Below, one piece after another: positions 6,340 to 54,331 of a stretch of 54,331 nt of DNA (position 1 is its first letter; each line of letters begins with the position of its first letter). Location of the stretch: positions 1-54,331 of the forward strand of contig KZ538680.1 in the NCBI GenBank assembly GCA_000934665.2, given 5' to 3'. The DNA is from Catajapyx aquilonaris. Its lineage: Eukaryota. The position numbers were made by a program, and so were the translations under genes. The notes under the pieces were generated by a model. The model worked only from the letters and a program-made list of their open reading frames with translations. It had not been told where the DNA came from and did not search any database.

Positions 6340-6651
6340 ATGATCCTGATAATACTGGGATTGTTGGGCTCCGTGATCGCTGTAGTAGGAACTGTGGTGC
6401 CTGAGGCGTGGGTGATCTACTTCCCGATCAGCCTGGTGCTGTGCCTGGTCATGGCCCTGGTCGGAGACGTGCTCCAGATCAAAAGCAGGCCCAACCACGA
6501 CGACCCCTACCTTGACCTCTACGTAGACCTGGCCATGGGAATCATTTGCGCCATGGCTCTCTTCACCTTCTACGAGCAAGAGATCGTGCCTCTAAATCTC
6601 TCCATCCCGTTCTGGAATAGTGACGACGACGAGACGTCACGCAAGACGTAG
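6340..6651 (+). CDS. Small membrane protein, about 103 aa with three hydrophobic helices, unknown family
   Basis: ATG at 6340 to TAG at 6651; strongly C/G-ending codons. Hydrophobic segments MILIILGLLGSVIAVVGTVV, WVIYFPISLVLCLVMALVG and LYVDLAMGIICAMALFTFY. Confidence 0.6.
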   Translation: MILIILGLLGSVIAVVGTVVPEAWVIYFPISLVLCLVMALVGDVLQIKSRPNHDDPYLDLYVDLAMGIICAMALFTFYEQEIVPLNLSIPFWNSDDDETSRKT

Positions 6652-19244: not shown

Positions 19245-22181
19245 ATGGCACCAGCAGGGGTGACAGAAAAGGAGCACAGAATTGGGCTCAAGTACTGCAT
19301 GTACGGATTCAACGCCATCGTACTGGTAAGTCCAATATTCAATCCAGACAATAATGTATGGGGGATAATATTATCAACTCCTATAGAAAACCTATGTAAA
19401 TATCAGCAGACATCCCTGTACAGTGGAGAAGAGTGTCGGATGTACACAAGTTGTACTTGATAAGTAAACAGCACACATTTTCTGAAACCCAGAAACTGCA
19501 GATGATATATAGCTGAAGCTTAAGCTGAAGGCATATCACATTTTAGCATTTGGCGATTTACGCAAATTCAGGTCACACAATAGCCTACAAAATGATCCTT
19601 CTGGAGACGACTGCTGGATAATCAGGCCGAAATTCAAGACCGTGGAAAGGAGAAGTTATGCGCTGATCTCTCCGCAGGATGTTGCAACCATTCTGGGACA
19701 TTCACTTGCCCTAATGGTTTCTTTGTAGGCCATTTGCTTACACCAAACATATCCGTGCCAAAAATCGCAAACTGAAAGGGATAATCGGCCTATACGCTGT
19801 ATATAAAATCCGGGATTTCTTCTGTAGGCATTGGCTAGCTTCCTGGTGGTTGGAGTGGCCATAACGACAAAGTCCTCCCTAGGCATCCAGCTTCCGTCGC
19901 TGGGAGAGGACGTGGCCTTCGCCTTCATCACACCCGTGTCACTGTCCTGCGTCACAATCCTCCTGGCCACCTTGGGGATAGTGGCCGCCAAGAAGGAGCA
20001 CTTCTCTCTCACCCTATCGGTATGTACTAATACATGCATCGCGACATATGCTTCACACGAGAAAGAAGCTGTCTCGTGTGAACATGCCCAGAATATACCC
20101 ATCTGATTGGGCTGTAATTCCTGTCCTGTTTGTCCACAGTACTGCGGACTCTTGATCGTGGTGATGATTCTGGAAATCTTCAGCGCGGTGCATCTGACCA
20201 GCATGGCCGAAGGGTACGGCCTGTCCGATGTAGAGTCCAGGATCGAGAGGGCCATGACCTACCCGTCGCCGTACTCGGACTACGTTCAGAGCACGGTAAT
20301 GCAAGCCCTGGGTGTGACATTAGGACGAAATTAATCCGATAAAAATACTGCGAATTTCTTAAATGATTCGTAAGGCATACCTATACGTATAGGAGGACGT
20401 TTGTAAAATGTGTGTGTGTGTGTGTTTTTTTGGTTGACATTTTCCAGTTCAAGTGCTGCGGGTTCGAGAACTACACGTCTTGGAATAAATTCTACCCTGA
20501 TGGCAGACTCCCTGACTCATGCTGCCCTCCGGGAACACGCGAATGCAGCATCAACTTGGCGGGGCCCAATCAAACCTTCTACATGGAGCCATGCTTCACC
20601 GACCAAAATCTGAAGGGCGCCATCAGTTCGACTATAGGACCCATGCTGGCCGTCGTCCTGACGGCGGCCTTCATCAAGGTAATACGAGGTGTGATCGAAA
20701 AGTTCCGCGATTTTGTTCATAGAAACATTCATATTTACTTTAAGTGCTAATTTCCACCTCAGCGTCACAAGTTCATATCTCCACTGGTTTGCACGGTACA
20801 TCCAAAATCCCGGAACTTTTCGATCACACCTCGTAAGGTTCACTATTTACACCTAAGTTACAGTGCACGTACTGTACATCATATACTGTACTGTACCTAA
20901 ATGTTCTCACTGGCATCTGGGTCAACAGCTGAAGCCCCCTGACTAATATTAGTAGCAGATTAACAGTATAAACAAGAGCTCTTGGTATAAAGTAAGTACA
21001 AAAACTGAGAAACACTATGGACAATTCAACTGGAATGCACTGTAAGAACTGATTACCTTATTGCACTTATTGGAGTATAAATTCTGCTGGTGATCAACAT
21101 AAAGTATGAACAGAAATCCTCATTGTGATATGCAACTTTATGTCCTTTAGCAGTCACTCATGAGCTTAGTTGCACCACATCTATGCGAAGTTGATCATGT
21201 GTATGTGTGTACTTAATGGAGTACACCACTAGCAACCACAAATAGGCCAAAATTGGCAAAATAGTGCAACTAGACACTGATAGTACAGGCACTTTGGTTA
21301 CACCTTATCAGTGTACATTTTGAGTTATGCAAACACACGCTATCTAAGCAAGTGAAGCTTATCAGAGAAACAAACGTTTCGCCTTATCTGCAGGGCCATT
21401 TAAACATGGCCAACCATGCCTAAGATACTTCTCATTCTGCACAATTTCATTGGCAGGGTTGCAAGGTTGCAAACAGGAAGTAATAATCAGCGACCCTGAC
21501 ACACTCACAAGCCATATTTCGCACAAACTTTCATGGCTAGTGTAATCTAGAGTTTCCCTCTTCCTACCTAGGAACATGATTACAAATAAATAAGCATTGA
21601 ACAAACCAGACATGCCAGTGGGTAGAAAAACTTTTTCTGCATGAACAGCGACCCTTAGGCGTTGACATGGAATATGTTATTGGCATTATTGATTATCGCT
21701 TACAAACCCAATGAAGATGTTTTGGCTGGGTGAAAATGCTACTTATTTTAACAATGTAATATGCGAGTAAAACTGTGGTCGTTTACACAATGTGTTTTAT
21801 GGCCTAATTGTAAGCAAAAATTTCTGATTGTGTACTGTTACATAATCAGATATTTTCACTTGCTATCTGCTTATACATATAGCCACACCTCATATTTTAT
21901 GGAAATAGCAAACATATTTTTTTTTGCAGCTCATTCATTCCCCGTTTTGACCTGCTGCATTGTTGGCCATATTGGTGGTGGCAAACTTATGGAGCTGCTT
22001 CATTATGTTCCAGATTCCTGGAATGGTTTTGGGAGCCATCTTTGCCTTCACCATGACCCAAGCTGGCCAGACCAAGTGGGCCAAAGTCCAGATGGAGTTC
22101 TGGCGAATGGGAGCTTTCGGTTCCTCTGCTGTCCCCTACAGTGTCTTTCCGGACATCCCAAAAGAAAAAGACACTGCATAG
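19245..22181 (+). CDS. Tetraspanin 3 (6-Cys large loop), about 275 aa
   Basis: Exons 19245-19325, 19828-20019, 20140-20295, 20448-20678, 22014-22181. N-terminal LKYCMYGFNAIVL; FKCCGFENYTSW; LPDSCC; TM4 ...AAFIK|IPGMVLGAIF; C-tail YSVF. Confidence 0.92.
20685..20833. mobile_element. 149-bp mariner-type MITE
   Basis: Perfect 23-bp TIRs CGAGGTGTGATCGAAAAGTTCCG / CGGAACTTTTCGATCACACCTCG, with TA on both sides. Confidence 0.9.
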
Positions 22182-35087: not shown

Positions 35088-37485
35088 ATGGACGTCGTGG
35101 AACTGCTCAACTTCAAGGTAATAAAACCCTCAAAAAACTCATAAACAAAATGATAAAACGAACCTGCACACATGTCCAATAGAATCTGCATGAACGGAAC
35201 TAACATGTTGTTCATTACCTGCATCATAACTCTGAGCATGATGAACTCACTACATTGAATTCATCCGCAATGAATTCAATGTAGTGAGTTCATCATGCTC
35301 AGAGTTCGTCATGTGGAGCTTGTTTTTATGTATTGGCAGCCCAAGAGCATCCCGAAGCGTCCTCAGGACAAGGAGGAGGACCCTGACTTTGAGTACGACT
35401 ATGCCACCCGCCGCCGCAAGCTCCGTCGCCTGGGGTCGGTCTCCACGATGTCCCGGGACTACCCGCAGACCCCGCATCCGGCCCACCCGCAGTTCAGGCC
35501 ACCGCAGCCATCCCCGTCACCAGCCAGACGCAACATGCAGCCCAACACTTCATCTCCGGAGAGGCCACCGTCGTCCAGCCACGCCACGGTGAGCGACGGC
35601 GGCGGGGACGAGGACGAAGTTGAGCTGATCAGCGAGGAGGAGCGGAGGAGGATTCTGGAGATGGTGGAGGCCGAGCCGGAAGCGGAGGCACTGGACGAGA
35701 ACAGCCTCAAGAGGATGATCCTCTCCTTTGAAAAGAGAGCACTGCGCAACCAGGAGATGCGCATCAAGTTTCCGGAACTGCCTGAAAAGTATGAGCCACG
35801 TTTGGAGTCTTTTTCCACAAAATTAAATCGATTGATTCTTTGCCAGGTTCATGGAGTCGGAGCTGGAGCTTCACGAGGGGCTGCAGGAGCTCCACGCTTT
35901 GGCCACCGCCCCTGATCTCTACCCCATTTTTGTTGAGATGCAGGCAGTCCCATCGCTTCTGGGCCTTCTCTCCCACGAGAACACAGACATCTCTGTTGCT
36001 GTTGTCGATCTGCTCCAGGTAACTCTTCAACGAGCGGCTCAAGTGTGACGGAAAGTCTGATCGTAATTTTTGTTTCAGGAACTGACTGATGTGGACACCT
36101 TGAACGAGAGCGAGGAAGGTGCAGAGGTGTTGATCGACACCCTGCTGGAGCATCAAATATGCGCTCTCTTGGTACAAAACCTGGAGAGGCTGGACGAAAA
36201 TGTCAAGGAAGAGTCAGACGGAGTGCACAACACACTTGGTTAGTGCGTACTTTATGAAATAACTTGCTGGCAACTGACGGAATGTGTTTCAGGAATAATC
36301 GAGAATCTGACCGAGTTCAAGCCCGACGTGTGCTTGTTGACTGCTCAGCAAGGCCTGCTCGGCTGGCTGCTGAAGCGATTGAAGGCCAAGATGCCTTTCG
36401 ACGGGAATAAGCTGTACTCCAGTGAGATCCTGTCGATTCTGCTGCAAGGACACCAGGAGAACCACAGGGCTGTAGGTGAAATGGATGGAATTGACGTCCT
36501 GCTGCAACAACTTGCTGTGAGTCTGTAGGAAATCCCAAACGTACCTGAATCACAACCAAGTTGATATCATTTCAGTTCTACAAGCGGCACGACCCGTCAA
36601 GCGCTGAGGAGCAGGAGACTATGGAGAACCTGTTCAACTGCCTCTGCTCCTGTCTGATGCTTCCGCCCAACCGCGAGAGGTTCCTGAAGGGCGAGGGGCT
36701 CCAGCTGATGAACCTGATGCTGCGAGAGAAGAAGCTGAGCCGCAGTGGTGCCTTGAAGGTGCTCAACCACGCCATGTCCGGCCCACACGGGAAGGAGAAC
36801 AGCACAAAGTTCGTGGACATCTTGGGACTCAGAACGATCTTTCCGCTCTTCATGAAGACGCCTCACCGGAATCACCGGAAAGGACTAAGTGCCGAGGAGC
36901 ATGAAGGTACTGCGGGCGATGTGAAACGCTTGAGATTTGCTTCATCGCTTTGTCAATTTCAGAGCATGTGCTGTCGATAATATCGTCGATGCTTCGGAAT
37001 TGCAAGGGCTCTCAGCGCCAGCGTCTTCAGACCAAATTCACGGAGAATGATCATGAGAAGGTGGACAGGCTCATGGAGCTGCACTTCAAGTACCTGGACA
37101 AGGTGCAGGTCGTGGACGCACAGATTGATCGGGAGAGGGAGGTGAGTCTACAGTATGCCGCAATGCTAACGCAGCACATGTTACCTGCATGTTGAATCTG
37201 CAGAATTCTGGTGAGGACGACGAGGAAGACGACGTGTACCTCCGTCGGCTTGAGGGCGGCCTTTTCACCCTCCAGCTGGTGGACTACGTGCTCCTTGAAG
37301 TATGCGCATCCGGCACTCCCTCGGTGCGCCAGAGGGTACTCCAGACGCTCAATTTGCGGGGGGCCTCCGTGAAGACGATCAGGCACATAATGCGCGAGTA
37401 CGCCGGGAACCTCGGAGAAGAAGGAGACGACGAGTGGAAGCAGCAGGAGCAGCAGCACATACTCCAGCTCGTCGACAAGTTCTAA
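35088..37485 (+). CDS. CTNNBL1: Beta-catenin-like protein 1 (Prp19-complex spliceosomal ARM protein), about 608 aa
   Basis: Exons 35088-35117, 35340-35788, 35847-36018, 36079-36238, 36293-36516, 36576-36906, 36963-37141, 37204-37485 (1827 nt). Motifs MDVVELL, NQEMRIKFP..PEKFMESE, LLSHENTDI, ERFLKGEGLQLMNLML, KFVDILGLRTIFPLFM, YLRRLEGGLFTLQ. Confidence 0.97.
35228..35306. repeat. Perfect 37-bp-stem hairpin in CTNNBL1 intron 1
   Basis: 35228-35264 is the exact reverse complement of 35270-35306; 5-nt loop CCGCA. Confidence 0.95.
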
Positions 37486-37908
37486 AAGCTGCCCCTCTGT
37501 GCGATTGGACTTTGACCCATCAAAAGTACTCTTTATGCGTGTGTAGATGTAGCGAATACAGCAACCTGTCATTTTTTAAATGGTGTTCAGTATTTTTATT
37601 CCAGTTGGTGGGTAATTTTAAGCACTTGTTGGACCGTAACACCGGCGTAATGCAAATCTGATTATTCACAGTTATTAAAATAGTACAGTATTACCAATAT
37701 AATTACATTTTTTGCGATTTGTATTTGGCGGGCACAGTTTGGCATAAATATTTCCGGAAAATAGTTAATATATCACCACCTGACAATTTAGCACAATTGA
37801 TTTTAACTACGGTATATAAAAACATGTTCCATTTTTTTAAAAAGCATTCCGTTGGACGAAATATTTTGAACAGTTCGGATGCCAGCCGCATGAATGGGCC
37901 CGACTTAA

Positions 37909-37940
37909 CCACGTGACCCACAGTCTGTGACGTCACGTGC
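37909..37940. promoter_or_regulatory. E-box/CRE cluster upstream of Mff
   Basis: CCACGTGAC, then overlapping TGACGTCA/CACGTG (37928-37939), just before a CAG|GTAAGA donor that suggests a 5'UTR exon. Confidence 0.4.
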
Positions 37941-38200
37941 AATTTTTTTTTCAGGTAAGACTTGCTCTTGTTTCGTGCGTTTGTTTTTAATTGTTTTTAT
38001 ATTTAATCCACGCTCGTTAGGTCCTAATTGATCATTGAAATTTGTTCCCGTTTGGTTGCTGCTTCTTGATCTGTCGTTAGAACAAGGCAGCAGTGCAATC
38101 AGCTGTGGTTCAGAGGGCATGTCTCAGGCCTAGCTGTCTTTTAATCGCACAGAGTGACACATAATTAAATGTGATTAATTTTCGCAGTATTTATTGCAAG

Positions 38201-39113
38201 ATGTCGACCTCAACCAGCCCAGTCCACATCCCCCGCAAGGACCTAGACGGCTACTACGACCCTACCTTCACAGCGGACATCAACAACAAGATGAGGGTTC
38301 CGAAGAGGATCAGGGTCACAGGTCAGTTTGTTGTGCCCTCCGGAGTCGCAGCAGCTCATGACCCCCTTTTGTGTGCAGGAGACGACGACAATGACGACTC
38401 GAACCAGCTGCACTGGGGACGTCCTGCCCACAACGGAGGCGGAGGGGGCGACAAGTTTGAGATGCACGTACCCGATCGTATTCTGGTTGTGGGGCAGGAC
38501 CAGCACATGGGCACCAGGGCGCCTCCGAGGGAGCTGGTCCTGGAGAACGCCGTCATGCCGCCCGATCCTGGCATCGTCAGAGTGCAGGTAACGCTCGCTT
38601 TCGATCGATCTACGCAATTCATTTACGTTCTCTATGTACCAGACTCCACCGAGAGTTATCAGCTTGGACCAGCACATGTTCCCGACGGTGGAGGCGACAG
38701 AGCCGTCCAAGGAAGACCTGGAGGACTCGGACTCCGGGCTGGGACAGAACGGAGGGAACCACCTGTACGACTCCGCAATGGGCGGCACACTGCGGATGGC
38801 CAACATGGGCGCATCTGTCGACTCCGACTGCGGAATGTACAGGTATTACTTCCCTGTACTGCGCAGGGATTAAACTAACGGTACGTTTCGCCGCAGAGAG
38901 TCTCATCCTGGAATGGACACTTCGCTGGCGCCGTCTGAGGAAATGCAGCACCTGCGACGCCAGGTTGCTAGATTGAACCGGCGCATGATGGTGCTGGAAA
39001 TAGAGCACCAGAGCCACCAGCAGAGGGAGAAGCTGTATTTCGCTGTTGGAATCGCATATGTTGTATTGAAGGCACTTGCTTTTCTGCAGCGCTCATTTTC
39101 CGCTCGGAACTGA
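38201..39113 (+). CDS. MFF: Mitochondrial fission factor / Tango11 homolog, about 248 aa
   Basis: Exons 38201-38321, 38379-38587, 38643-38842, 38897-39113 (747 nt). Repeats MRVPKRIRV and MHVPDRILV, TPPRVISL, coiled coil LRRQVARLNRRMMVLE, C-terminal TM anchor. Confidence 0.93.
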
Positions 39114-40435
39114 AGTCTAGGGCTGGATTTATACCGTCGTTTATTTACCGCGAAAGGGACACTGGATTAGGTTTTGTGAACACCCTGGTTTTTTGCCCCC
39201 CTTTTAATTTTGGGGCGTTGGCGCAGATTCATGCCATACATTTTTGATGCTCATGTCCCAAATATTTGTCCAAACTTCCGCTCCTTGTACCTACAGCATG
39301 CTATATCGAACTCTCCATTTTCCGACCATGTTAAAGCGCAGGGCTAGGAAGTAATATTATTTTCCAGAGAGTTGCATGTGGCTGTTACTGCTCCAGTAGA
39401 GGTCGTGTAGTTAACATACTGCAAATCGGTACCTGCTCTGCACGCACTCGTTATATGGAATGGTGCATCGTAAGTGTGTAAAAAAAAAAGCAGATACTAT
39501 TTTACAGCTTATTGTTTCAAGCTCCTGATATGAAAGAACGCGTCACAAATGTCACTTAAAGGCAGATTAGTCACTACTTGTATTTTGGATAGCTTGAAGC
39601 ACTACTGGTAATGAACGTTCAGGTTAAAAGTTTCACTCAGCTGTATAAATTGCACGTAGTCATTACAACTTCCATTAAATTGAGGTGGAGACAGTAACAG
39701 CTACTTTCAACCAGTGAACTGCTGGAAATAATTTACGTCCTGCCCTGTTTGCAAACCTGTTGCAAGCAACCCTATTTCAAACCCTCGTATACTTAAAAGT
39801 TTTGATGATAGAAGCAGGAAATGTACTAGAAATAATGCGTTAAACATGATTAAGTTTGACAACTGTTTTTTTTACACTTAAAGTCAATAAACTACTACTG
39901 TTGAATTTGGATAATAAACATTTTCCCTTGCGTTACGTCTCGGTTATGATCAGTCAATTTTTGGATACAATTTGTTGTGTGAGAGTAGGCCAATTTTTTG
40001 TTTTAAAAAATGCGGGAATGTGTGGTTGTGAAGAGAGGAAAGGTGCCAAGGACTACAAGTGCGCCACCGGTCAAATGACGATTTTTTAAAAAATAATGTG
40101 AAGTTGGAACTCGAACAATTTGATGGATAACAGACAAAATAGTGAATACAATTTTTTTTTGTGTGTATCCTGAATCGATTAAAAAAGCAATTCAGTGTCA
40201 GTATTTGTTTAGTGTAGGCCTCAAGCATGCAACATGGTATGGCAAACCCGTATTCATCACAGCTAACGCTTGGGTGGTGTACCTTCTCTTGTCGTTCAAT
40301 AATGATTGATAGACACCAAACATCATGTGACATTCAGGACAAGTCCTATATCAGTAGGAATATTTCAGTTCATTTGCTACGGCTGGATTATGAGTTTTTG
40401 ATCGCATTGCCAGTACGGTGATTTTTGAAATTGTT

Positions 40436-42522
40436 ATGGCTCGTCATAATGCAATTGATTCGTGTTGGAAGTGCTGCATGATGTTGCTTACACTGACTAC
40501 GAGTGATGCTAGGTTTCCACACTTGACGTGCAATTTGAGTGTGGAAGAGCAACTGGTGAAGGACCTTGTAGGCGATCTGCTTGGATCTGGCTGCAGCCTG
40601 GTGACCATTAGCGACTTCATTGGGCATAGACACATCGCTGGCCGAGCATCGACAATGCAGTCGTCTTCGTATCGTCCGTCCATGTCTTTTCAGAGCAACG
40701 CAACCTTTAATCCAGCTGAGCCCACTTCCTTTACGAGCTTTACGCCACTCTTGGGCACATGGAGTGGACAACCATGCACTTTACATGTGGTGATGCCATT
40801 GTCACCAAGCAGTCTCTCCGGATTGGTGCTTCACCTGGCCAAATTGGTGCGACTGGACAATCTGCATCACCATTTCCTCATCCACTTGGACAGAGCACCA
40901 GACCTAGCAGCACTTGCGAAGCATCCGATTCAAGGCATTCGATTGAAACTGGTGACACACTACGAGAAGAGTAATCAGCAATTAGCATTGTCGACAGTTT
41001 GCTTTTTTTGCAATGAAGGTATGTGTTTTCCATTGAGCTTCAATTGAGCTTAAATTGCGACGTTCCCATTTTCAGGCAAACCGACGCTGCAGCACATTGG
41101 CGCATATCCTGGCGATTTAAGCTTGTCGGACATGTACCCAGATGTGTGGTCCGATCTACATGGGTTTCCTATCCGTGTGTCCATACCGCAAACCTTTTCG
41201 GTACCGGACTTGGACAGCATCCGGAAGATTATGGCCCTGGAAGGACCCACTCCAAGCGTCAATTTTTTGCAACACGTGATTCACAACCTGTGCCTGTATC
41301 TGAACTCAAGCATTAGTGTAATCCATGTACCTATTACTGACATCAAGCGTGAATTCAAAGAGAATGGAACGTGGGTTGGGTCGATAGGCACTGTACAATC
41401 AGGAAAGAGCCACATGGCAGGCATCACTTTCATCACAGCGGAATCCTATACCGACTTTGTGACAACAATTGCCTTGTTTGACGAATCCTTTGTGTTTGTT
41501 ACTCGCATTCCTCGACCTGTGCTGTCCTGGCATGCCCTGTTAAGCCCCTTCAGCTTGGCAATGTGGTTACTTGTATCAGGAACCTATCTCGTGCTGATCT
41601 GCATCTTTTCACTTATCGTTGCAATTGAAAGGAGGTGCTGCCGGAGATGGCTGCATGTCGGCTTATCACCTTTCCACGTGGGGCTCAGATACATTGTACG
41701 CTTCATTGTCGAGCAGCCTTGGAGTGTTAAGATTCGACATGTATCCGCCTTGCATGTACTTTTGCCGGCATTTTTCTTTTACATGTTGGTACTCACTAAT
41801 GCGTATAAGACGAAGCTACTGTCTCTCCTGACAAGTCCGGACAGGGAAGACGTGCCTGAGAGCTTCCAGCAGCTCCTGGATCACTTCCCACCTGATGACT
41901 CCGACTATTACAAGTGGGGAGCGCCTTACCTGGATTCCCTGATGTTGAAACGTTTTGGAACTGAAGCCAACCGTTCGGATTATGAAATGCTGGCCTCGGG
42001 AGAGTTGTTCGACACTCCATTGGAATGCCTGCAAGCTGCGCATGATGGTAAGTAACAACGTTCATGCACGCCAATCCGTAGCTAATCATTAATTAATTCT
42101 TCATTTCAGGCAAGTTTGCATGTGTGATACTGACCTTCTGGTTGCACCTGCACGAGAGCATGTTCTACGATCATCATGGAAAACTGGATTTGAAAGTGTC
42201 TGGAAATAAAATCCAGTCCAATCAAGTGGGATCTGCAATTGGTCGGGGCGAAGTGTTTGCCAGTAATGTGTGCAAAATGTCTATGAACCTGTTTGAAAGC
42301 AACTTGGAGAATAAATGGTGGCGGGACGAGGAGTTCATGTCCTGGCTGCGGTCAAGTAAAAGCAGAGTCTGGAAGGTAGAAACGGAGAGAGAGATGATGT
42401 CCGACCAGGTTGTGGACCTGTCCAAATTAGCTGCCGTATTCATAACTTGGTCAATTATGCTCGGATTGGCCGCTACGTCCTTTGTCTGCGAACAGGTCGT
42501 GAGGACCTTGAACATGACGTAG
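40436..42522 (+). CDS. Divergent ionotropic receptor (array copy 1), about 655 aa
   Basis: Exons 40436-41018, 41076-42047, 42110-42522. Signal peptide, NGTWVGSIG, PFSLAMW, VEQP, NAYKTKLLSLLTSP, LFESNLENKW, M4. Confidence 0.92.
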
Positions 42523-43031
42523 ATCAGTAGTTTGAACTGATATTTGCATGTTCATGTAGAAAATATAAGGCAGCCTGACAGATGCTTCATTGACGTATAT
42601 GCCGCTACTGTATCCTTAAAAAAATTACTTACTTTCTGACGGATCTGTACATTATTCCCTGCACGACCTTCTTTAAAATTGCATTTTTATTTTTGGGTGT
42701 ATTCATGTGGTGTCCCGAAGTAGTAGTGAATAACCTTGCGGAGGTATTTGAATGGAAATTTATTGTCTCTTATAAACGCAAATTACAGCTTAGAACGTAA
42801 CATATTTCATCTGTCGCCATTCATCGTGATGGATCACTCTGCCATTTGGGTGGGACTCTTATTGTGGCGTCGCAGAGACTGTCGTAACAGTCGCACTGTT
42901 GTCTCACTGCTGCGAAATTCCAGGTGATACGTCGACTGGGATTAATAATTTGAATTGTTTATTGTTGACTTGTGTAATTGTATCGCGAGCAATTATTGTG
43001 AGCGATTAGTCGGAGCAAGGTTGAGAGAAAC

Positions 43032-45103
43032 ATGGTCCAAATTCAGGCAGATGTTTGTAGGAAAACATTGATAACAATGGTTGCAACGATATTGGTGACT
43101 CAAGTGATAGGGACCACTAGTGATGTCCTGCAGGTGAAAGAGAGTGTGACCACGGAGGAACTGTTGGTGACAGGACTCGTTGGTGATTTGTTGGACTCCA
43201 GTTGTGGCCTGGTGACCATCACGGATGTTGACGACAATCGCGTAATGGCTAAGGCAGTGACGATGCAGTCTGCTGTGTATCGTACAGTCATGTCGTTCAA
43301 GAGAGTTGCAGTGACTGGTGATCAGATAACCCCTCTTTCTTTCACAAATTTGTCACCAACCTTTGGTGAGTGGACTGCACTGCCATGCACTCTTCATCTG
43401 ATCATGCCTTCGTTGCCCAATGGCACTGCCGCACTGGTACTTCACCTGGCCAAGACGGTGCTATTGGACAACTTGCGTCACAGGTTCCTTATCCACTTGA
43501 GAAGCCCTCATGCAGACGTGTTAGCGACACATCCGATGCATGGAATAAGACTGAAATTGGTGACCCACACTTGTGGGCAACAACTAAACATGTCAACCAT
43601 TTGCTTTTTTTGCCAGGAAGGTAAGCATTATTGCCACTTACAATGTGTGCGAATATAATACCAGGTGTGATTTTCAGGCAAACCGTCAGTTCGACATGTC
43701 GGCATGTACGTCAATGGCCGCAACATTTCCGACATGTACCCAGACACATGGTCCGACTTACATGGACTTCCGCTGCAGCTGTCCATCCCGGACATCGTTC
43801 GAGGAACAGATTTAGATAGAATCCGCATGAAAACAGCTCTCCACGGTCCCACTCCCACACTTTTATTTATCGAGCAAATGCTGTACACTTTGTGCACCAG
43901 CTTGAACTCAAGTCTTGGGTTCACATTTAGATCCCTAGATGAATTTGTAACAATGGACACCAGGCATCCAAACGGTACTTGGGGTTCCACGTATGGGGAC
44001 GTGCAATCTGGAAGGGCCCACATGACGGGAATTAGCTTCATCACACCGGAATCCTACGTTGATTTTCTGAACACAAGACCTTTCTTCCACGACTCAATCA
44101 TATTCGTAACGAAATCGCCTCACCCTGTATTGACATGGTACATCTTGATATCACCCTTTGACGCAGCGTCATGGGGATTGCTACTGGCCGCTGACATTTT
44201 ATTCATTTGCGCTCTTGCATACTTTATGAGAACCGAAAAGAAATTCCACCCCGACGTGCTTCTGGAATCACCTTTTCATGTTTCCTGGAAGTATGCCGTG
44301 CGATTCATGATTGAGCAACCGTGGCCGCTTAAGCTGGCGTACTTGTCCGCACTTCACTTGCTGCTCCCAACCTTCTTCCTGTCCACATTGCTGGTGAACA
44401 ACGCATACAAAAGCAGGCTTCTTTCGATACTGACCAGCCCGGAAAGAGAGAGCAGGCCGGAGACCTTCAGGGAACTGCTGGACCACTTCCCACCTGGAGA
44501 CTCGGATCATTACAAATGGGGCGCGTTCATGGTCGAGGCAATGGTTTTGAACCAGATGGGAATGGCAACCAATAACTCTGATTACATCGCTCTAGCTTCT
44601 GGAGACATATTTCCGCATCCAGCGGAGTGCATGAGAACTGCACAGAAAGGTAAGGCAGCGTATGAGCTTGATTACGGCAGGGTTGATCACTCTCCATTTT
44701 TTTCTTTACAGGCCGGTTCGCATGTCTGATCCTGACCTTCTTCATGCGGCTGCACCAGGCCTCGTTCTACGACCAACGAGGAAACCTGGACCTGCACGTA
44801 TCCAGAGACCACATCTATTTCGACCAAGTGGGAGCCGGAGTGGGTCGCGGTGAGGTGTTTGCCCTCCACATATACAACAAGGTGGTGCAGCTCTTCGAAT
44901 CCAACCTGCTGGACAAGTGGCTACGTGACGAGCTGTTCATGTCCATCGTCCGGTCCAGAAAGACCGGAGGAGCAGCAGCCTCGGAGCAAGACATGATGTC
45001 GGAACAGATAGTGGACCTGCACAAGCTGGCCGTCATATTCATCACCTGGTTTCTGTTCTTGGGAGTCGCCGCAATTGTGTTTGCATGGGAGCGTGCTCAT
45101 TAG
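43032..45103 (+). CDS. Divergent ionotropic receptor (array copy 2), about 650 aa
   Basis: Exons 43032-43620, 43678-44649, 44712-45103; same motifs and intron positions as copy 1. Confidence 0.92.
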
Positions 45104-45245
45104 TGTAATTAGTGCAATTAGTTCGTTTCAAAATTGCCGCCTTAATTTGTGCCATCTGTGGGCCAATCTGGCGAATTATTATTATTATTTGATTATATAA
45201 GCATTATCATGGTGTCCAAAAGCACGTGTGGTCAAATCGCATGAG

Positions 45246-48200
45246 ATGTCTGCTTATGAGGGACAATCCTGCAGCATCCAAAGGTCCATACGGATGGAGA
45301 GATCTGCCATGTTCATGCCGAACCAGGTAATTATTCACACTTCAAATTACCTACTCTTGTGCGTTGACGTACACGTGCAATTTTGCAGGTGGCAGGTGGT
45401 CTGCTGGCCGTGTTTGACAAGTTGATGTCGGAGGTGGCCATACTGATCCGGCCCCTGGTGATGGCCATGCCTGCAGCCGACCCCATAATGGTGGCCATCA
45501 GGAGCCTGCTGGAAAGGGTCGTGGTGGCACGCACCAGAAGGGACGGCCCGTCCTCAGGAGCCCTCATCAAGAAGGTCAGCTCTCGTGCTAATAAGACGAG
45601 CCACGATATTTTTCAACGCCTCTATATGTTTCCAGGCTGTGGAAGGTATCCTGACAAAGTATCCTGCAGCGCTAGTAAGTGACGAGGTGGTTCTCCTTTA
45701 CCTGCAAGTGCATATGATCGTCCTGAAGGCCTTGCAAGATCCCAGGGCGTATGGTCCGCTGGTGGTCAGCAAGGAGGTGACGCGGGTTCTGTTTGCATGC
45801 AGGGTTGAGCTCAGGTTTAACCTGCCCCTTGTCAACGTGTTGATACGAGACAAGGTGGTCCACATGCAGATGTTTGACATGTACCTGGCACAGGATATGG
45901 AGAGCGGGGCCAATTTGACAGCCGTGGACTTTGCAATGAGACTGGTCCATTTGTATCTCGTGGAAGAGAGGCAAAGTGCCCATGTCACGGATAATGACTT
46001 GTTCAACACTGTGGAGATGCTTGCGAGCATTGCCACATACTCCCTTCATCCTCCAGACAGGTAGGGTGATTTTTAAAACTTGGATGTAGCTCGGCACGCT
46101 ACCTTCTTCTCTAATTTTTCCAGGTTGACCGCACTGCTTGACCTTCTGAGGGAGAACCATTACCCAAGGTGTCCCATTGATGAATCACCTGGAGGCTCCA
46201 CGATTGACGAATCTCCTGGAAGCTCCACGATTGATGAATCACCTGGAGGCTCCACAACTGATGAATCACCTGTAGGCTCCACGACTGATGAATCACCTGG
46301 AGGCTCCACAACTAATGAAACACAGTCAGACAGTTCTGAGCCTCAAGAGTCCGATGACTCCCTTGGAATTCTGGAGAAGACAAAGTACATCTTAAGGGAG
46401 TGGGTGGCCATTTATCATTCGCCAACAGTGGGGAAAGACATCAACAAAGCCTCCGTGCTGTTGCTTCAACAGGTTCGGTAGTGAACAGAAAGTGTGGCGT
46501 GTCTGGGTCAGCCTTTTTATGGCCGCTTTTGGGATATTACGTTGAACCCTACTTTTCAGATGTACCTTTGCGGGCTGCTAAAGACTGATGAAGTCTTCAC
46601 TGAATTCTTTCGCCAGAGCACGCACATGTGTATGGAGATTACCTCCCAGTCCTTCATAGAGCAGCCTTCCTCTCAAAATCTGCCTCGAGTCCAGTGTTTC
46701 CATACTTTGAATGCCTTTGCAAAGCTGATTGCTCTCCTTGTGAAGCGCTCAGGAGGCGACGACAACACAGACATCAAGATCGACCTACTGGACAAAGCAC
46801 TGGGTACATTAACTGAGGTCCTGCTTCGAGACCATGAGGACCGTGGCGTAATGTTCCATCAACTGCCTTACCACCGAATGCTCATCATGCTTTTCCTGGA
46901 GCTCAATGCACCCGACCCAATTCTGATGGCAATCAACCAGCAGGTAATTGCATGCGTTCTGTATGGAATCATAAAGAGGAGGATTTCATAAGAATGTGGC
47001 CGTTTGGTACCAGTCGACTTGCATTGCCACTTCATTTTAATATCATATGGCTTTGTTACCAGGCACTGTATACATTCTGCACTGCATTGCACATCATACG
47101 CCCAGAAAAGGCCCCTGGATTCTCCTTCGCATGGCTGGAGCTGGTGTCGCATCGGGACTTCATTAGCCGCATGTTGGCCATGTCTCCTCAAGAGAAGAGC
47201 TGGGGGATGTACGCCCAGTTGCTCATCGACCTCTTCAAGTTCCTTGCCCCCTTCTTGAGGAATGAAGCGATTTCCGTGTCTGTTGGTCACCTGTACATGC
47301 GGACCCTGAAGGTCCTCCTGGTTCTCCACCATGACTGCCCAGATTTCCTTTGCGACTACTGTCACGAGTTTTGTGATGTAATCCCAACCAACTGCATCCA
47401 AATTCGGAACCTAATCCTTTCTGCATATCCCCGGATGATGCACATGCCACATCCCTACCTGGCCAACCTCCAGGTACCGTACTACTCAAATTTAGTGTAG
47501 AGCAGTTATCCATTCATGGCTGTGCGTGTTGGCTAGGATGCGACTCTGATGAATTGTGTTAAAGCCGTTGTCGTTCCTCAGGTGGACCTCCTTCCGGAGA
47601 TTGCAGTGGTCCCCAGGATTCTCATTGATTTCGACTCCATGATCCAGCCGCCATACTTCAAACAGGTATTGTATTCACACCCTTTTCCCACCCATCCGCT
47701 AGCCATATGTATGAACATATTGCGTCATATTTTCACCCACTGGTCTTGCAGGAATTGGATTTGTATATGAAGATCAGGGCACCGGTGGCCTTCCTTTTTG
47801 CATTGAAGCAATACCTCCGGGTGTCCAGTTATGAGCCAGGCATATGCTACAACCATTACGACATCCCGCTCATGAATGCACTTGTCCTCTACATTGGAAC
47901 CCAGGCCGTCGATTACATACTCAGCATGGGATTGGTTCCAAACATGACAACCATCAGGTTCTCCTACCATCTGGACCTCTTCTGGACTTTGAGCTTGAAT
48001 CTGGACACGGAAGGTAAGGAATTAATTTTAGCTTCAACTCATTAACTAATAGTTCCTGCAACACTGTCACAATATTTAAAACCAATTCCACGAGCATATA
48101 ACCAATTGTGCTGGAATATGTCAGATGTATTTGTGTGTGATATTTCATGCAGGTCGCTACGTGTTCCTGAATGCTATGGCCAACCAGCTGCGATACGCCA

Positions 48201-49149
48201 ACAGTCACACCCAATATTTCAGCTGCGCGCTTCTGCATCTCTTTGCTGAAGCCACTTCAGAGTCCTTACGTGAACTCATTGCCAGGTATGGATTCACTTC
48301 ATCTGATTTCTTTGGTCACTTTGTTCACTGGAGGCGTTCCCCACAAGCAATGATCAAATTGCTGGCTATACCCAACTTGAGTTTAGTGGTATTTTATTTC
48401 GCTCATGATATGCTTAAGATAACATTCCACTACAGAGTGTTGCTGCAGCGCGTTATGGACAACAAACCACACCCATGGGGCCTTCTGATTACCCTTCTTG
48501 AGCTGATCAGGAACTCAAAGTACAAATTTTGGAACCACGACTTTGCCAACTGCTGTCCTGAGGTAGAAAAGTATGTGTCAGTCTTAAAGAGCTTCATCAA
48601 TTATTATTTATATGTAATAAGGGCTTTTTTTTCTCCTTTGGATGGATATGCACGGATTGTGTAAGATACAGTAGAATAAGCATGTGTGCATGGGTGCAAA
48701 ACATCTTTTGCACCCAGTTCGAATGCATTTCAGACACATCTTCTCCCTAATGTAAATGCACCTGCAAATGATATTCGAAGATTCAAAGTGAAATTCAAAC
48801 ATTTGCATTTATTTGTCAGTGAACTGGCATCGATATTTGATTAAGAACTTGGATTGTTCAAAAAAAAGTTTTCATCACCATAAATAGCAATTTGACACAT
48901 TTCAGTGAATTGAATGACATCACGAAACTTTATAAAAGAATTCCTGTTATCACAGCACTGATTTCTCAATATTGGTCAATTGACTCGTCATGGATATTTC
49001 TCTTCTTTTTACCCCTCCCACCTTCGCAACTCTTGTGTTCCCCATCTTGTCATTATCTTCAATCAATCAACAGTCTGGTTCAGTTACGTCCTGGTACGAG
49101 CATTGGGCAGGAGCAGACTGAGCCAATCCAAGAGGCAAAGATGGCCTAA
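45246..49149 (+). CDS. CNOT1-like: N-terminally truncated, divergent CCR4-NOT subunit 1 paralog (C-terminal third only), about 841 aa
   Basis: 11 GT-AG exons: 45246-45326, 45389-45574, 45636-46060, 46124-46472, 46560-46943, 47063-47473, 47582-47665, 47752-48013, 48153-48285, 48436-48570, 49074-49149; 2526 nt, no internal stop. CNOT1 motifs [85 protein letters not shown]. Confidence 0.93.
46177..46311 (+). repeat. 27-bp coding minisatellite x5 ([I/T]DESPGGST)
   Basis: ATTGATGAATCACCTGGAGGCTCCACG-like unit repeated five times in exon 4 of the CNOT1-like gene. Confidence 0.95.
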
Positions 49150-50188
49150 TAGCGCAGGCCGTACCCAAGAGGCAGCTCATCATGGAAAACGCTGAAAACC
49201 ATTGAGACACTGTGAGCCATAACACTGGACACAAAAGGTGTGATTAGTGATTAGTGAATCATGTGTAAGAATATCTGTGTCCAGGTTATTAAAACATGAA
49301 GGTTAATCCCCCCACCAAAAAAAGAAAAGTGGTAAAAGACTTGAATTTTTTGATGCCAAATGATTGTGCAACAAGGATACGTGCAGTACGGAGGTGGAAA
49401 TGATGCAGACGTGTGAGCTCGAACCTTTCCCCATAGCTTGTGAGAGTAGTGTTACACTTTAGTCCTCGTGTGTGAAGAAGGATGGGGAACAGAATAAGAA
49501 GTCTGGTGTACTTATAATCTGCCAGCAGAATGAAAGTCAGAATTGTAAGACACTTGTTGAGCTAAATACTCAGGTTTGACTGCACTTATTGGAATTTTTC
49601 TCGTAACTTTCAAATATCATTTAAACACAAAATGTTGTGTGTCATAACCCATTAGTAATAAAATGCTTGGGACCTTTATTGCATACACTGTACTGTAACT
49701 TACTGCATACAGTATAATTATAATTTGGTATAATCACAGTTTGTTATGTTCTGACTCAGATCCACGTTAATTTTCACCTAGACCTATATTTTCGATGTGA
49801 TAGACATAGAATAAATCAATGTGTGTGTGGCCTACGTACTTAATTATTGGCAGGTGAAAGATAAAAGGTTGCATGAAACGGCGCAGTTTGGCTTGATTTA
49901 CGACCAAAAAGACGTAAATCATCACTGGGGGCCAAATAACACGTTGCACACAGTCATGTCCACATGTATTAGTCACTAACTAGCACAATGATCACTGAGC
50001 CTGTACATGTTAGGTAGCACCTATTGTGACATTTGAGTTTGTCTTATTCTGTTCCACGTGTCGCAAATACTTCTCTCACATTACGATTGAATATTTTTGT
50101 TGAACATTTGAGTCACTAGTGACATCAGTGAGGAAGTTGGCCAGCGGAATAATGGAAACGATTTAATTAACCTTGTGACAGTGCAGAA

Positions 50189-52463
50189 ATGTCAAATTGG
50201 TATAGGACAAGTGGTATAGTGATGGTGACGGTTCTGGTGACTATGGGTGCATATGCTGATTTCCCATATGTGAAGACCAATTGGACAAACGAACAAGTGC
50301 TGGTTACTGCACTCATACATGACTTGTTGGGATCTAGCTGCGGCTTGGTGATTATCAGTGACATTGGTGACAACGGACGCATCTCTGCTGAATCCATCAC
50401 GATGCAGAGTGCCGCATATCGTCCGGTCATGTCTCTCAAGAGGATCACTGAAACTCATATGAAGCCAGTTTCCTTTACAGAGTTGTCACCACTATTTGGC
50501 GAGTGGACAAGACAGAAGTGCACCCTACATGTGATCATTCCGCGATCACCAAATGCCCTCTCCACTTTAGTGCTTCAACTGGCCAATATAGTGAGAGTGG
50601 ACAACCTGCGTCACCATTTTATGTTCCACTTGGAAACGTTTCCAGCTACAGACGTGTTGGTGACACACCCAATTCGTGGCATACGGAAAAAATTGGTGAC
50701 TCACTACAGAGATGGACGGCTCGAACTCTTTTCCGTGTGCATCTTCTGCCCCAAAGGTATTCACTTTATTATAGGCGTACCGTATATTGTTGTAATTTAA
50801 TTTTAATGAGAGATTTGGTGTCTCTGTTTGTCCAGAGTGCATGTAGTACCACTGCTTGTAGCACGACCATGAGAGTGGCAGGAGTGTGTGCCATCTATGT
50901 GAGGTACATGGTACTACGTGCATAGTACTATACTGTATAAATGATCATAGGTTAACTCAATTATTTCAGATGCACCGAGTCTGATCCCCCTGGGGCCGTA
51001 CCCGAGAGAGCCAGCCAGTCTGGAAATCTACCCGAACGTGTGGTCGGACATGCAGGGAGCCCCTCTCCTCCTGTCCATACCAGACCAATGGAACGACCTG
51101 CCCAACATGTCCGAGATCAGGTCCAAGATAGCTCTGGAGGGTCCCACTCCAACTCTGACCGCATTCGAGCACTACCTCCGCATCCTGTGCTGCTCTCTCA
51201 ATTGCAGCAATTTCGAGTACGTGCTAACTCCTGTCGACCCGACCCAGATGGAGTTGAAGTATCCCAACGGTACATGGGTAGGTCCGATCGGGACAGTCCA
51301 GTCCGGAAGGGCGCCCCTGACCGTGGCGAGCTTCATTACGGAACACTCGTACGCTGACCTCGCCATGGCGCAGTCCTTCGTCCACGAATACATCACGTTC
51401 GTCACCCACTCTCCCAGAGCTGTCCTGAAATGGCAAGCCCTATGCAGCCCATACAGCCCGACCCTGTGGATAGTAACTATGGCTACGAACTGCATCCTGG
51501 TCTGCGTGATTGCGGTGGTTCTGAAGCACACGGACAGCTACGCCCACTATAAGCTGCCATCCTTGTTGTTAGTAGGGGCCAGGTACGTGATCCGGTTCCT
51601 GATCGAGCAGGCCCAGCCTCTCACGATGGCCGACAGATTCTCTGGCCTCCATCTGATGCTGACCGTCTTCTTCTTGTACGGGATTCTGCTGACCAACGCG
51701 TACAAGACGCGGCTGCTGTCCCTGCTGACCAGTCCAGACAGGGAGGAGGTGCCGGTCACATTCAGACAGCTTCTGGACCAGTACAATCCTAGAGACCCGG
51801 ATTCCTACACGTGGGGGTCATCCATGTTTGAGACCCTGCTGCTCAACAATATCGGAATCACAACCGGTCTGGCTGACTACATCAGGCTGGCCACAGGCGA
51901 AATGTTTTCTAATCCATTCTCCTGCATGAGGGCTGCACAACGAAGAGGTATTTACCTTTATCATTAAATCATAGATGCAGTGATATGTTCCTAACCCCCA
52001 CTTGTTTTGTATACCTTCAGGTCAGTTCGCATGCGTGATTATATCGTTCTACTTGCGCCAGTACCAGCCCTTCTTCTCCAATTATCAAGGGCAACTGGAC
52101 CTGGTCACGTCAATCGACCGCATCCCATTCAGCAACATGGGAAGTGCTGTAGGTCGTGGTGAGGTCATAGCACCTATTGTTCACAACCTGGTTAAGGTGT
52201 CCAGCGAGAGTGGACTGGCCGACAAGTGGTGGAGGGACGAGCAGTTCATGTACTTCCTACGAACATGGGAAAAAATTCAGCTGGAGAAGAGCAAAGACGA
52301 GGAAGTTGAGACTGAGCTGGTGTCCGACCAGACAGTGGATCTGTCCAAACTGATCACCGTCTTCATCGGCTGGTCTGTCGGGCTGGGATTTGCAACCCTC
52401 GTGTTCTTAGGGGAATGGGCGACTTTCAAGGGCCACCCGACAAACACCGTGTATCTTCCTTAG
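50189..52463 (+). CDS. Divergent ionotropic receptor (array copy 3), about 662 aa
   Basis: Exons 50189-50756, 50970-51947, 52021-52463; NGTWVGPIG, PYSPTLW, IEQ, NAYKTRLLSLLTSP, ESGLADKW. Confidence 0.92.
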
Positions 52464-53243: not shown

Positions 53244-54331
53244 ATGATGTTCGTATATTTAGTGACTATGGTGATAATAATCGGTAGTAATGCTCATGAA
53301 TTGCGGGTGAACAACACTTTAACGCTGGAAGAAGTGTTAGTGACGCGGCTTGTCCAGGATCTGCTGACTACCGATTGCGGATTGGTGGTGATCAGTGATA
53401 TCGGTGACAATGGACGCGTCACTGGGGAAGCATCGTTCCAGGAGTGGTCTTCTTATCGATCGGTGATATCATTCAAAAGTAACCCCGAATCCGACGCTCA
53501 ACCCCTCGTTTCGTTCACCAATTTGTCACCACTCGCTGGCACCTGGATCGGAGAGCCCTGCACTCTTCACGTGATCCTGCCATCGTCACCAAACCGCACC
53601 GCTGCCATGGTGCTTCACCTTTCTAAGAAGGTCCGTTTGGACAACTTACGTCACAAATTTCTAATACACATGACCGAATCACCACCACTGGACAAATTAG
53701 TGACCCAACCGATTCACGGTGTGAAACTCAAATTGGTGACTCACTACCAGAAATGCAAACAGCGGCTTTGGCTGTCCACAGTTTGCTTCTTTTGCCGACT
53801 TGGTAAGTGACACTGCTACTCCATTTTAAAAATTACGCTACAGATGAATCTTTTAACGAGTGCACACCACAGTTCGCGCAGTTGTCAGAAACGGAGCTGC
53901 GCGAGTGTGGGTGCGCACTGGGGTGAGCTGCCGTCAGATATGAGAAGACCGTAACTCAATGTCCACTTCCGCTTGCGGCGAGAAAAGAAAGCAAGTGGTA
54001 CCAAAAGCACCCAACAGATGGAGTTGGGGTGCCGTTCCTTTTCCCCCATTCCCCCAACGCCACCTCTTGGATGCTTTCGGTAACACTTGCTTTCTTTTCT
54101 CGCCGCAAGGGAAGTGGATATTGAGTTACGGTCCTCTCACATCTGACGGCAGTGAGGTTGTAAAGAAATTCAGCGCTGCTAAACTAACGGTCCATACCCT
54201 CGTCATTCATCCCCAGGCGAGCCAACAATGTTAGACGTGGGTGCGTACCCTTATTCTGACCCTAGACCTGACCTGTACCCTGACGTGTGGACCAACCATC
54301 ACGGCCGCCCTCTGCTCATGTCCCTACCAAT
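53244..54331 (+). CDS. Divergent ionotropic receptor (array copy 4), 5' part; runs off the window
   Basis: Exon 53244-53802 is homologous to exon 1 of the other copies (CGLVVISD, CTLHVI, VRLDNLRH, CFFC). Exon 2 starts at 54217 (GEPTMLDVGAY...DLYPDVW). Confidence 0.9.
53928..54152. mobile_element. Foldback MITE with apparent 4-bp TSD (TGAG) in IR intron
   Basis: TGAG|CTGCCGTCAGAT...ATCTGACGGCAG|TGAG; about 100-bp arms including CTTGCGGCGAGAAAAGAAAGCAAGTG / CACTTGCTTTCTTTTCTCGCCGCAAG. Confidence 0.85.

Follow-up and report, generated by a model that had tools for sequence, protein, structure and literature searches.

A 5'-truncated CNOT1 paralogue encoding only the connector and SHD, probably shaped by selection, in the genome of Catajapyx aquilonaris

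In the literature excerpts consulted here, NOT1 (CNOT1) is the scaffold that underlies all modules of CCR4-NOT, the main deadenylase of the cytoplasm, and the abstract of one preprint gives it as a single gene in most eukaryotes. The abstracts of two reports on Plasmodium describe NOT1 and NOT1-G (PfNOT1.1/PfNOT1.2) as mutually exclusive or antagonistic scaffolds (10.1101/2020.02.12.945477; PMC8562791). Short CNOT1/Not1 isoforms of human and yeast, according to excerpts of another paper, derive from the same gene as the long form and lack about 235 N-terminal residues, which hold the NOT10/11 site (PMC12746107). In Drosophila, Zeus and Poseidon are presented in excerpted text as young, rapidly diverging retro-duplicates of CAF40, one of which keeps NOT1 binding while the other loses or weakens it. 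Review text also states that a C-terminal fragment of CNOT1 folds and assembles the NOT module. Among the papers listed by full-text literature searches, none dealt with a NOT1 paralogue reduced to its C-terminal part. Here, we describe a copy of this kind in a 54,331-nt stretch of the genome of Catajapyx aquilonaris (assembly GCA_000934665.2, contig KZ538680.1, positions 1 to 54,331 of the forward strand), hereafter called the window. The copy lies at 45246-49149 on the + strand, spans only the NOT1 connector and the Not1 superfamily-homology domain (SHD) (roughly residues 1568-2375 of human CNOT1), and is very probably a 5'-truncated CNOT1 paralogue that has been shaped by selection.

We rebuilt the gene model from the sequence and obtained a coding frame of 2526 nt, which corresponds to 841 codons and a TAA stop and contains no internal stop codon (Table 1). 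All ten introns (62, 61, 63, 87, 119, 108, 86, 139, 150, and 503 nt) have GT-AG borders, and homology supports 10 of the 11 exons, exon 11 being the exception. A preliminary description, made from the sequence alone, had reported an 841-aa frame over 11 exons with canonical splice sites and substitutions even in conserved CNOT1 motifs. The frame and its splice sites were re-derived as described, and both substitutions, P to A in QLRYPNSHT and LLERL to LLQRV, are visible in the alignment. DNA contigs assembled separately from three sequencing runs were also compared with the window; these runs and the assembly derive from one sample, and the runs are possibly the source of the assembly. The contigs carry three single-nucleotide polymorphisms (SNPs) in the coding sequence, of which those at 45719 and 46461 (exons 3 and 4) are synonymous and that at 49127 is non-synonymous, a number too small for a ratio of non-synonymous to synonymous polymorphism (pN/pS).

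The domain content was examined by a Pfam run on 10 separate exon translations and by tblastn. Exons 6, 8, 9, and 10 combined cover positions 22-365 of the 372 in the PF04054 profile, and exons 2-3 cover positions 2-197 of the 207 in PF23590, while exons 1, 4, 5, and 7 gave no Pfam match when scanned singly. Among structures in the PDB, exon 6 matched human CNOT1 chains (5fu6/4cqo/4c0d) with E ~1e-57. When eight CNOT1 proteins of 1394-1997 aa were used as tblastn queries against both strands of the window, all significant high-scoring segment pairs fell within 45612-48592, and the four remaining ones were at chance level (E of at least 0.026). The same search found no match anywhere in the window to the MIF4G region (CAF1/DDX6), CN9BD/DUF3819 (CAF40), the N-terminal HEAT region, or the TTP-binding region. 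Full-length CNOT1 matches carry PF12842, PF16415, PF16417, and PF16418, which stand for the CN9BD/DUF3819, MIF4G, TTP-binding, and N-terminal HEAT regions. An Rfam scan of 44000-50500 returned no family. The preliminary claims of a C-terminal module only and of no further 5' CNOT1 exons therefore stand for the window, in which the connector and SHD are present, everything N-terminal of the connector is missing, and tblastn found no CNOT1 exon in the 45 kb upstream. Because the corresponding regions are absent, the copy cannot, judged by content, bind CAF1/CCR4, DDX6, CAF40, NOT10/11, or TTP-type recruiters.

The identity of the copy to 38 canonical CNOT1 C-terminal regions was 43-56% (median 48%), as against a minimum of 54% and a median of 65.5% among the canonical sequences themselves. 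We next compared it with 27 non-redundant canonical sequences from coral, vertebrates, molluscs, and arthropods and found it altered at 46 of the 194 columns (23.7%) that are invariant in them. When each canonical sequence was jackknifed, 26 of the 27 showed changes at 0-3.5% of such columns, and the Limulus 'CNOT1-like' protein at 9.3%. Divergence is greatest where the CNOT1 family is most rigid: exon 9 is 96-100% identical among canonical sequences but 69-71% in the copy, and exon 10 is 91-100% identical among canonical sequences but 63-65% in the copy. A maximum-likelihood tree with 33 rows gave the copy an end branch of 1.45 substitutions per site, the median being 0.19. The copy was placed in an unresolved pancrustacean group together with insects and malacostracans (Shimodaira-Hasegawa-like approximate likelihood-ratio support, SH-aLRT, 81), a placement that is unsure on so long a branch. 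The divergence implied by the preliminary description was accordingly too low, with 24% of the metazoan-invariant residues replaced and a branch ~7.6 times the median. An exon of the host's CTNNBL1, a gene upstream in the same window, is 70-80% identical to its counterparts in many insect orders; host CTNNBL1 is ordinary, and the fast divergence therefore belongs to the CNOT1 copy and not to the host lineage. The CTNNBL1 identities also point to a hexapod-like arthropod as the host. The host genome is expected to contain a conventional full-length CNOT1 at another locus.

Database searches with single exons gave a best identity for exon 6 of 69-70% against longer proteins and 71% against fragments. 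For exon 3, searched against 1.84 billion representatives, the best-scoring match was 47% identical and none of the matches listed exceeded 55%, and a connector-region tree of 42 rows contained no sister sequence. The host's own CTNNBL1 is also missing from the searched databases, and the host clade appears to be poorly sampled. The C-terminal-only CNOT1 paralogue is known so far from one genome. As a separate observation from the jackknife, the Limulus polyphemus 'CNOT1-like' protein (P0119) is altered at 20 of the 214 columns that do not vary among the other canonical sequences (9.3%) and may be another diverging CNOT1 paralogue; the horseshoe-crab lineage underwent genome duplications.

We then asked how far the sequence departs from neutral decay. 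In a neutral simulation run to 23.7% protein divergence, a conservative setting in that the invariant sites require at least this much divergence and indels were ignored, the mean number of stops was 8.8 and none of the 1000 replicates remained stop-free. Survival of all 40 splice-dinucleotide bases under neutrality has P ~0.004. Among columns fixed in five insect-clade sequences, 46 of 193 metazoan-invariant columns were changed in the copy versus 99 of 235 columns that vary elsewhere (Fisher p 9e-5), and the gradient of change over site classes was monotonic (36.5%, 45.8%, 67.9%). This site-gradient test is partly confounded, as variable columns are likelier to differ in the host's parent gene too. 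The replacements themselves are mild, with a mean BLOSUM62 score of -0.06 versus -0.52 for random single-base non-synonymous changes (reached by 4 of 10000 resamples), and 20 of the 46 invariant-site changes exchange one hydrophobic residue for another. This pattern would fit a HEAT fold that was kept while its surface changed. The G + C content at third codon positions (GC3) is 0.63 (0.48-0.79 by exon), versus 0.35-0.41 in introns and flanks and 0.56-0.72 in the neighboring ionotropic receptor (IR)-like genes, and the frame-preserving 27-nt repeat in the exon 4 linker was counted as a further sign of selection. Five lines of evidence indicate that most of the divergence accumulated under selection. 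The preliminary view that the copy was kept by selection is reasonable for most of its history, given a frame beyond neutral decay and CNOT1-like site constraints.

The manner of duplication can be read from the introns. Fragment ends in the predicted proteins of other species coincide with the exon 6, 7, and 8 boundaries of the copy: among 69 fragments, 5 start at reference positions 360-361 (exon 5/6), 16 end at 497-501 (exon 6/7), 6 end at 525 (exon 7), and 3 terminate at 610, close to where exon 8 ends. Such a pile-up would fit inherited introns and duplication at the DNA level. A partial DNA-level duplicate had been proposed at the outset, and the proposal agrees with the presence of introns and the loss of everything N-terminal of the connector.

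Although the SHD is retained over its length, its mapped peptide-docking sites are not those of canonical CNOT1. As excerpted, the groove for the NOT1-binding motif (N1BM) of Drosophila Nanos is lined by human F1876, V1880, L1889, I1895, L1946, H1949, and L1962 (PMC5207322). All seven residues are invariant in seven canonical sequences, and the corresponding residues of the copy are S, L, L, F, L, R, and L, with F1876, V1880, I1895, and H1949 altered; the binomial probability of at least four changes in seven at the background rate is 0.059. The pocket for the NOT1-interacting motif (NIM) of vertebrate Nanos is assigned in an excerpt to the last two helices, with F2353 in alpha23 (PMC4003280). 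With exon 11 as the tail, the copy has V at the F2353 position and then L-R-P in place of S-V-A, which puts a Pro inside helix alpha23; the tail produced by reading through exon 10 departs equally from the canonical NIM pocket. The human numbering offset was checked for residues 1876-2353 only, where 8 of 8 checks agreed. The preliminary description had the retained region binding recruiters such as Nanos. This does not carry over to the copy, in which both mapped docking sites are altered (4/7 in the N1BM groove and F2353 to V). A simple recruiter decoy was also considered and is disfavored on the same grounds. According to review text, NOT3 is anchored along HEAT repeats 1-5, and the anchor of NOT2 begins at repeats 9-10; judged by content, the platform for anchoring NOT2 and NOT3 is predicted to be kept.

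On these grounds, we propose the following course of events. The copied block would have begun inside the exon encoding the segment just before the connector domain, and an internal Met would have become the first in-frame start, giving a product of 841 aa (847 aa with exon 10 read-through) that comprises the connector and the whole SHD. After duplication, the copy would have evolved fast under selection that preserved the HEAT-repeat fold, with its surface residues remodeled, the known peptide-docking grooves included. The resulting NOT-module-only scaffold would pair with NOT2-NOT3 or copies thereof but would be unable to carry CAF1/CCR4, DDX6, CAF40, or NOT10/11. It would then rival the full scaffold for NOT2-NOT3, or else build a complex that has no deadenylase and recruiters of its own, and expression would probably be tissue-restricted. 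Taken as a whole, a lineage-specific truncated paralogue kept as a coding gene, with a modified NOT-module platform, is the account we lean toward by a little. That it is at present an expressed NOT-module-only scaffold is given nearly, but not quite, an even chance. Our most far-reaching suggestion is a tentative and rather doubtful one, in which the grooves of a natural NOT-module-only scaffold have been re-tuned to other RNA-binding partners, and the protein acts as a CCR4-NOT antagonist that titrates NOT2-NOT3 or forms a separate, deadenylation-independent effector complex. The antagonist version draws on the co-dependence of NOT2-NOT3 and NOT1 for stability. A partial NOT1 paralogue with a regulatory function would, if this is true, be a first for animals.

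The 5' boundary of the copy was examined closely. The stop codon of the upstream IR-like gene lies at 45101-45103, and the gap from there to the ATG was re-measured as 142 bp, the same figure as in the preliminary description. A match to TATATAAG at 45194-45201, 45 nt ahead of the ATG, marks a putative promoter by motif match only. An in-frame stop at 45198-45200 shuts the frame 15 codons 5' of the ATG, the frame is open from 45201, and an AG at 45244-45245 abuts the ATG. Exon 1 and the ~10 codons preceding it are colinear with canonical CNOT1 over K-V-G-x-V-T-P-Q-Q-M-A-V-Y-E-E-F, where the start Met corresponds to the internal Met that stands ahead of A-V-Y-E-E-F in tick and leafhopper CNOT1. 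The resemblance of the MSAYE start to an internal CNOT1 motif, which had been noticed before, is thus seen in a colinear alignment, whose score is weakly significant (matched by 5, 31, and 39 of 1000 shuffles with three references). Homology of exon 1 is likely because it is placed directly ahead of exon 2. Met1 aligns to approximately human residue 1568, and chain A of 4c0d starts at ~1560, within roughly 10-20 residues. Gapless DNA contigs at 35277-46217 (run X1) and 35277-46911 (run X3) extend from the upstream genes through the 142-bp gap into exons 1-5, and the boundary is bridged in the contigs assembled separately from the three DNA runs. The 5' truncation lies in the DNA itself and not in the scaffold build. 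The DNA contigs differ from the window by SNPs at 45115 and 45213 in the 5' flank, which has no other copy within the window.

At the 3' end, two gene models compete. The intron before exon 11 is 3-8 times the length of the other nine (61-150 nt). The score of the exon 11 peptide against the canonical tail is not significant, being matched by 534 of 2000 shuffles, and the read-through tail reaches the same score, matched by 1179 of 2000. Splicing to exon 11 and read-through to the stop at 48662-48664 appear to be equal alternatives by homology, and under neither model does the SHD keep a conserved last helix. GC3 slightly favors the spliced model (0.54 for exon 11 versus a non-coding-like 0.35 for the read-through tail), whereas the inverted repeats around exon 11 and the branching of contigs at the right arm count against it. 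The DNA contigs of all three runs are interrupted at 49570/49627, where a minor alternative path over 49571-49626 carries 5 SNPs and 1 insertion, and further DNA contigs link 49084 to 49163 and 49196 to 49461. The segment at 48766-49622, which has no other copy within the window, may represent an inserted element or else a strongly polymorphic region. Past the ATTAAA at 49288, matches to AATAAA occur at 49657 and 49810 on the + strand. Contigs of a further run, X5, were judged to be RNA from their spliced CTNNBL1 and Mff contigs; they give no cover over 42095-48544 (exons 1-10), which carries no weight on expression. Within 48545-49834, X5 contigs have a low depth of ~1.9-2.5, including 49127 (2.5) and 49276, which may or may not stem from the copy, and the piece at 49163-49354 runs into unrelated sequence at both ends.

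Several points weigh against a copy that is kept as a coding gene. The room for a promoter and 5' untranslated region is only 142 bp, with an out-of-frame ATG at 45238, 8 nt ahead of the start, and the choice of 3' end is left undecided by homology, repeats, and GC3. Radical changes occur at residues invariant from coral to vertebrates (G231R, R362E, G555R, L564H, D605H, P743A, and others), and NOT2/NOT3 binding may have been lost, with identity in the C-terminal subdomain falling from 91-100% to 63-71%. GC3 of 0.63 is below that of the neighboring housekeeping genes (0.74-0.82), which would fit a gene that is weakly expressed or partly decayed. No orthologue or closer relative than canonical CNOT1 was found in sequence databases, and cross-species conservation is therefore absent as a sign of function; a separate full-length CNOT1 is an assumption; and the confounding of the site-gradient test belongs here as well. 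The main rival explanation is a non-functional relic, either formerly selected or young, that is now silent or dying, has no real promoter, and retains its frame as a leftover. The tiny 5' space, the upstream out-of-frame ATG, and the unclear 3' end speak for it, as do the degraded invariant residues and docking grooves, a GC3 between that of housekeeping genes and non-coding DNA, and the missing orthologue in database searches. However, 0 of 1000 neutral simulations keep the frame, 20 of 20 splice sites are intact, and the replacements are conservative and avoid conserved sites. A branch of 1.45 predicts many stops and frameshifts in a dead copy, and any death should therefore be recent. We consider such a relic unlikely, although it is the alternative to be taken most seriously. 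Two plain forms of pseudogene do not fit the sequence: a processed pseudogene or retrocopy is contradicted by 9-10 GT-AG introns at positions matching the fragment ends of other species, and an unprocessed pseudogene is at odds with a sequence that has no stop, frameshift, or broken splice site, whose frame stayed open in 0 of 1000 neutral simulations, and whose replacements are conservative and biased to variable sites.

The remaining explanations concern the extent and origin of the locus. The copy could be the 3' portion of a transcription unit that is longer or chimeric, in which non-CNOT1 exons are spliced into the AG at 45244-45245 or the IR-like gene is read through, and the product would then not start at MSAYE. 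This would agree with the AG directly before the ATG, the frame open from 45201, the position of the IR-like gene and the CNOT1 copy on the same strand 142 bp apart, and a + strand that has no AATAAA or ATTAAA between 45103 and 49288. Another IR-like gene of the array also has no canonical signal past its end, and the missing hexamer is therefore uninformative; together with the in-frame stop at 45198-45200, 15 codons upstream, and the lack of any upstream exon with CNOT1 similarity in the window, this makes a chimeric unit improbable. Capture of a gene fragment by a transposable element, with no host function, would find a hint in the 42-nt inverted repeats that bracket 48766-49622, in the contig paths that branch at the right arm, and in the high-copy repeats nearby at 53.7-54.3 kb, but the inverted repeats enclose only the 3' end and not the gene, no second copy of the flanks exists in the window, the DNA contig depth over the gene equals that of the flanks (contig depth being a poor measure of copy number), and signals of constraint would be unexpected in such cargo. 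We regard it as very improbable. Least probable of all is an assembly artefact, or a sole CNOT1 of the genome whose N-terminal exons were misplaced. The DNA runs share their sample with the assembly, which leaves this some room; against it, separately built contigs from three runs are unbroken from 35277 into exons 1-5, and replacement of 24% of the invariant residues is unlike a sole essential scaffold in a host whose CTNNBL1 is ordinary.

The copy lies between two same-strand genes weakly similar to ionotropic glutamate receptors (iGluRs) or IRs. The preliminary description had placed it inside a chemoreceptor array, a context for which the evidence is weak. The two flanking genes are mutually paralogous (44% identity, E 3e-91), but their Pfam matches are both sub-threshold (Lig_chan, E 0.035; Lig_chan-Glu_bd, E 0.23). 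A language-model look-up pointed to arthropod Lig_chan clusters with a score of 0.97. A 647-codon single open reading frame (ORF) at 11910-13850 on the - strand, with a sub-threshold Lig_chan match (E 1.7e-6), is an IR-like gene outside the 40-52 kb array. A 9-nt unit, ATTAGTGCA, present in 2.7 copies at 45099-45122, straddles the stop codon with which the upstream IR-like gene ends. Positions 50480-51124, within the 5' part of its downstream paralogue, have about double the contig depth in the three DNA runs, and contig joints connect 50818/50855 to 53859/53924; a repeated segment is probably common to 50480-51124 and the repeat at 53.9 kb. The latter belongs to a very high-copy repeat at 53705-54331, which has a summed contig depth of 4000-8400 versus ~20-35 in its flanks and many loose ends at 53926-53929 and 54152-54153. 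Further upstream, homologues of CTNNBL1 (35115-37568) and Mff (38318-40188) have GT-AG introns of 54-222 nt, which were confirmed by spliced X5 RNA contigs with 0 mismatches, and the Mff contig ends 10 nt past an ATTAAA at 40178. The top-scoring match of the CTNNBL1 exon was a partial protein from the nematode Ostertagia (P0271; 53% identity over 97% of the query), which is possibly a mis-modelled or contaminant record, whereas the other top matches were insect proteins at 70-80% identity. A tandem set of three tetraspanin-like ORFs lies on the + strand at 11072-11371, 16700-16984, and 20367-20747 (Pfam E 3e-9 to 5e-7).

Table 1. Features of the truncated CNOT1 copy and its immediate surroundings, in window coordinates.
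Feature	Position	Strand	Details
Upstream iGluR/IR-like gene, last ORFs	43002-45103	+	Paralogy, Pfam, language model
5' flank, 142 bp	45104-45245	+	TATATAAG; in-frame stop; CNOT1 homology trace from ~45216; out-of-frame ATG
Exon 1	45246-45326	+	27 codons, beginning MSAYE; homology to canonical CNOT1 immediately ahead of the connector domain; no Pfam match
Exon 2	45389-45574	+	NOT1 connector start; PF23590 positions 2-56, E 6e-4, below cut-off; alignment
Exon 3	45636-46060	+	Main part of NOT1 connector (MIF4G-like); PF23590 E 3.2e-48, PF25097 E 7.6e-47
Exon 4	46124-46472	+	Linker, connector to SHD; alignment
Tandem repeat, 27-nt unit (9 residues), 5.5 copies, in frame	46176-46323	+	Variable linker of exon 4; 88% matches, 0 indels
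Exon 5	46560-46943	+	N-terminal SHD HEAT repeats; holds the Nanos N1BM-groove equivalents; alignment
Exon 6	47063-47473	+	Not1 SHD core; PF04054 E 3.1e-51; human CNOT1 structures E ~1e-57
Exon 7	47582-47665	+	SHD; alignment
Exon 8	47752-48013	+	SHD; PF04054 E 1.4e-3 (weak)
Exon 9	48153-48285	+	C-terminal SHD subdomain; PF04054 E 1.9e-15
Exon 10	48436-48570	+	C-terminal SHD subdomain; PF04054 E 4.2e-16
Alternative 3' end: exon 10 read-through to TAA at 48662-48664, 847 codons	48571-48664	+	GC3 0.35
857-bp segment between 42-nt inverted repeats	48766-49622	.	Arms 48766-48807 and 49581-49622, 71% complementary; contains putative exon 11
Putative exon 11 and stop (uncertain)	49074-49149	+	GC3 0.54; non-synonymous SNP at 49127
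Poly(A)-signal-like ATTAAA, first on + strand after 45104	49288-49293	+	Begins 139 nt past the stop at 49149; motif match only
Downstream iGluR/IR-like paralogue	50171-52460	+	Paralogy, Pfam

A retained copy of the NOT module alone would separate the functions of NOT2-NOT3, namely complex stability, recruiter docking, decapping links, and ribosome sensing, from deadenylation within one organism. It would be a natural tool for the NOT module alone, a question usually approached with engineered fragments, and its remodeled grooves would show recruiter specificity evolving on a conserved HEAT surface. If silent, it would be just an unusually well-preserved truncated duplicate.

Compared with canonical CNOT1, the homology of the copy is colinear over the connector and full SHD, and several exon boundaries are apparently common to both; unlike canonical CNOT1, the copy has no N-terminal HEAT, TTP-binding, MIF4G, or CN9BD regions and has 46 of 194 invariant residues replaced. 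Its span is almost the same as that of the human CNOT1 fragment crystallized with CNOT2-CNOT3 (PDB 4C0D chain A, 812 residues), although that fragment is a laboratory construct of canonical sequence, and the copy is a natural gene of derived sequence. Both Plasmodium NOT1 paralogues are full-length scaffolds. The NOT1 scaffold is duplicated there, as here, but in an apicomplexan and, in the abstracts, with no truncation described, whereas the copy in C. aquilonaris retains the NOT-module part only. The short isoforms of human and yeast are, in their excerpted descriptions, like the copy in being natural scaffold variants that miss one module and make the complex heterogeneous, but they lose ~235 residues from a product of the same gene, while the copy loses ~1570 residues and occupies a separate locus. 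Finally, Zeus and Poseidon resemble the copy as diverging duplicates of a highly conserved arthropod CCR4-NOT subunit, and differ from it as full-length retrocopies of another subunit, the copy described here being intron-bearing and truncated.

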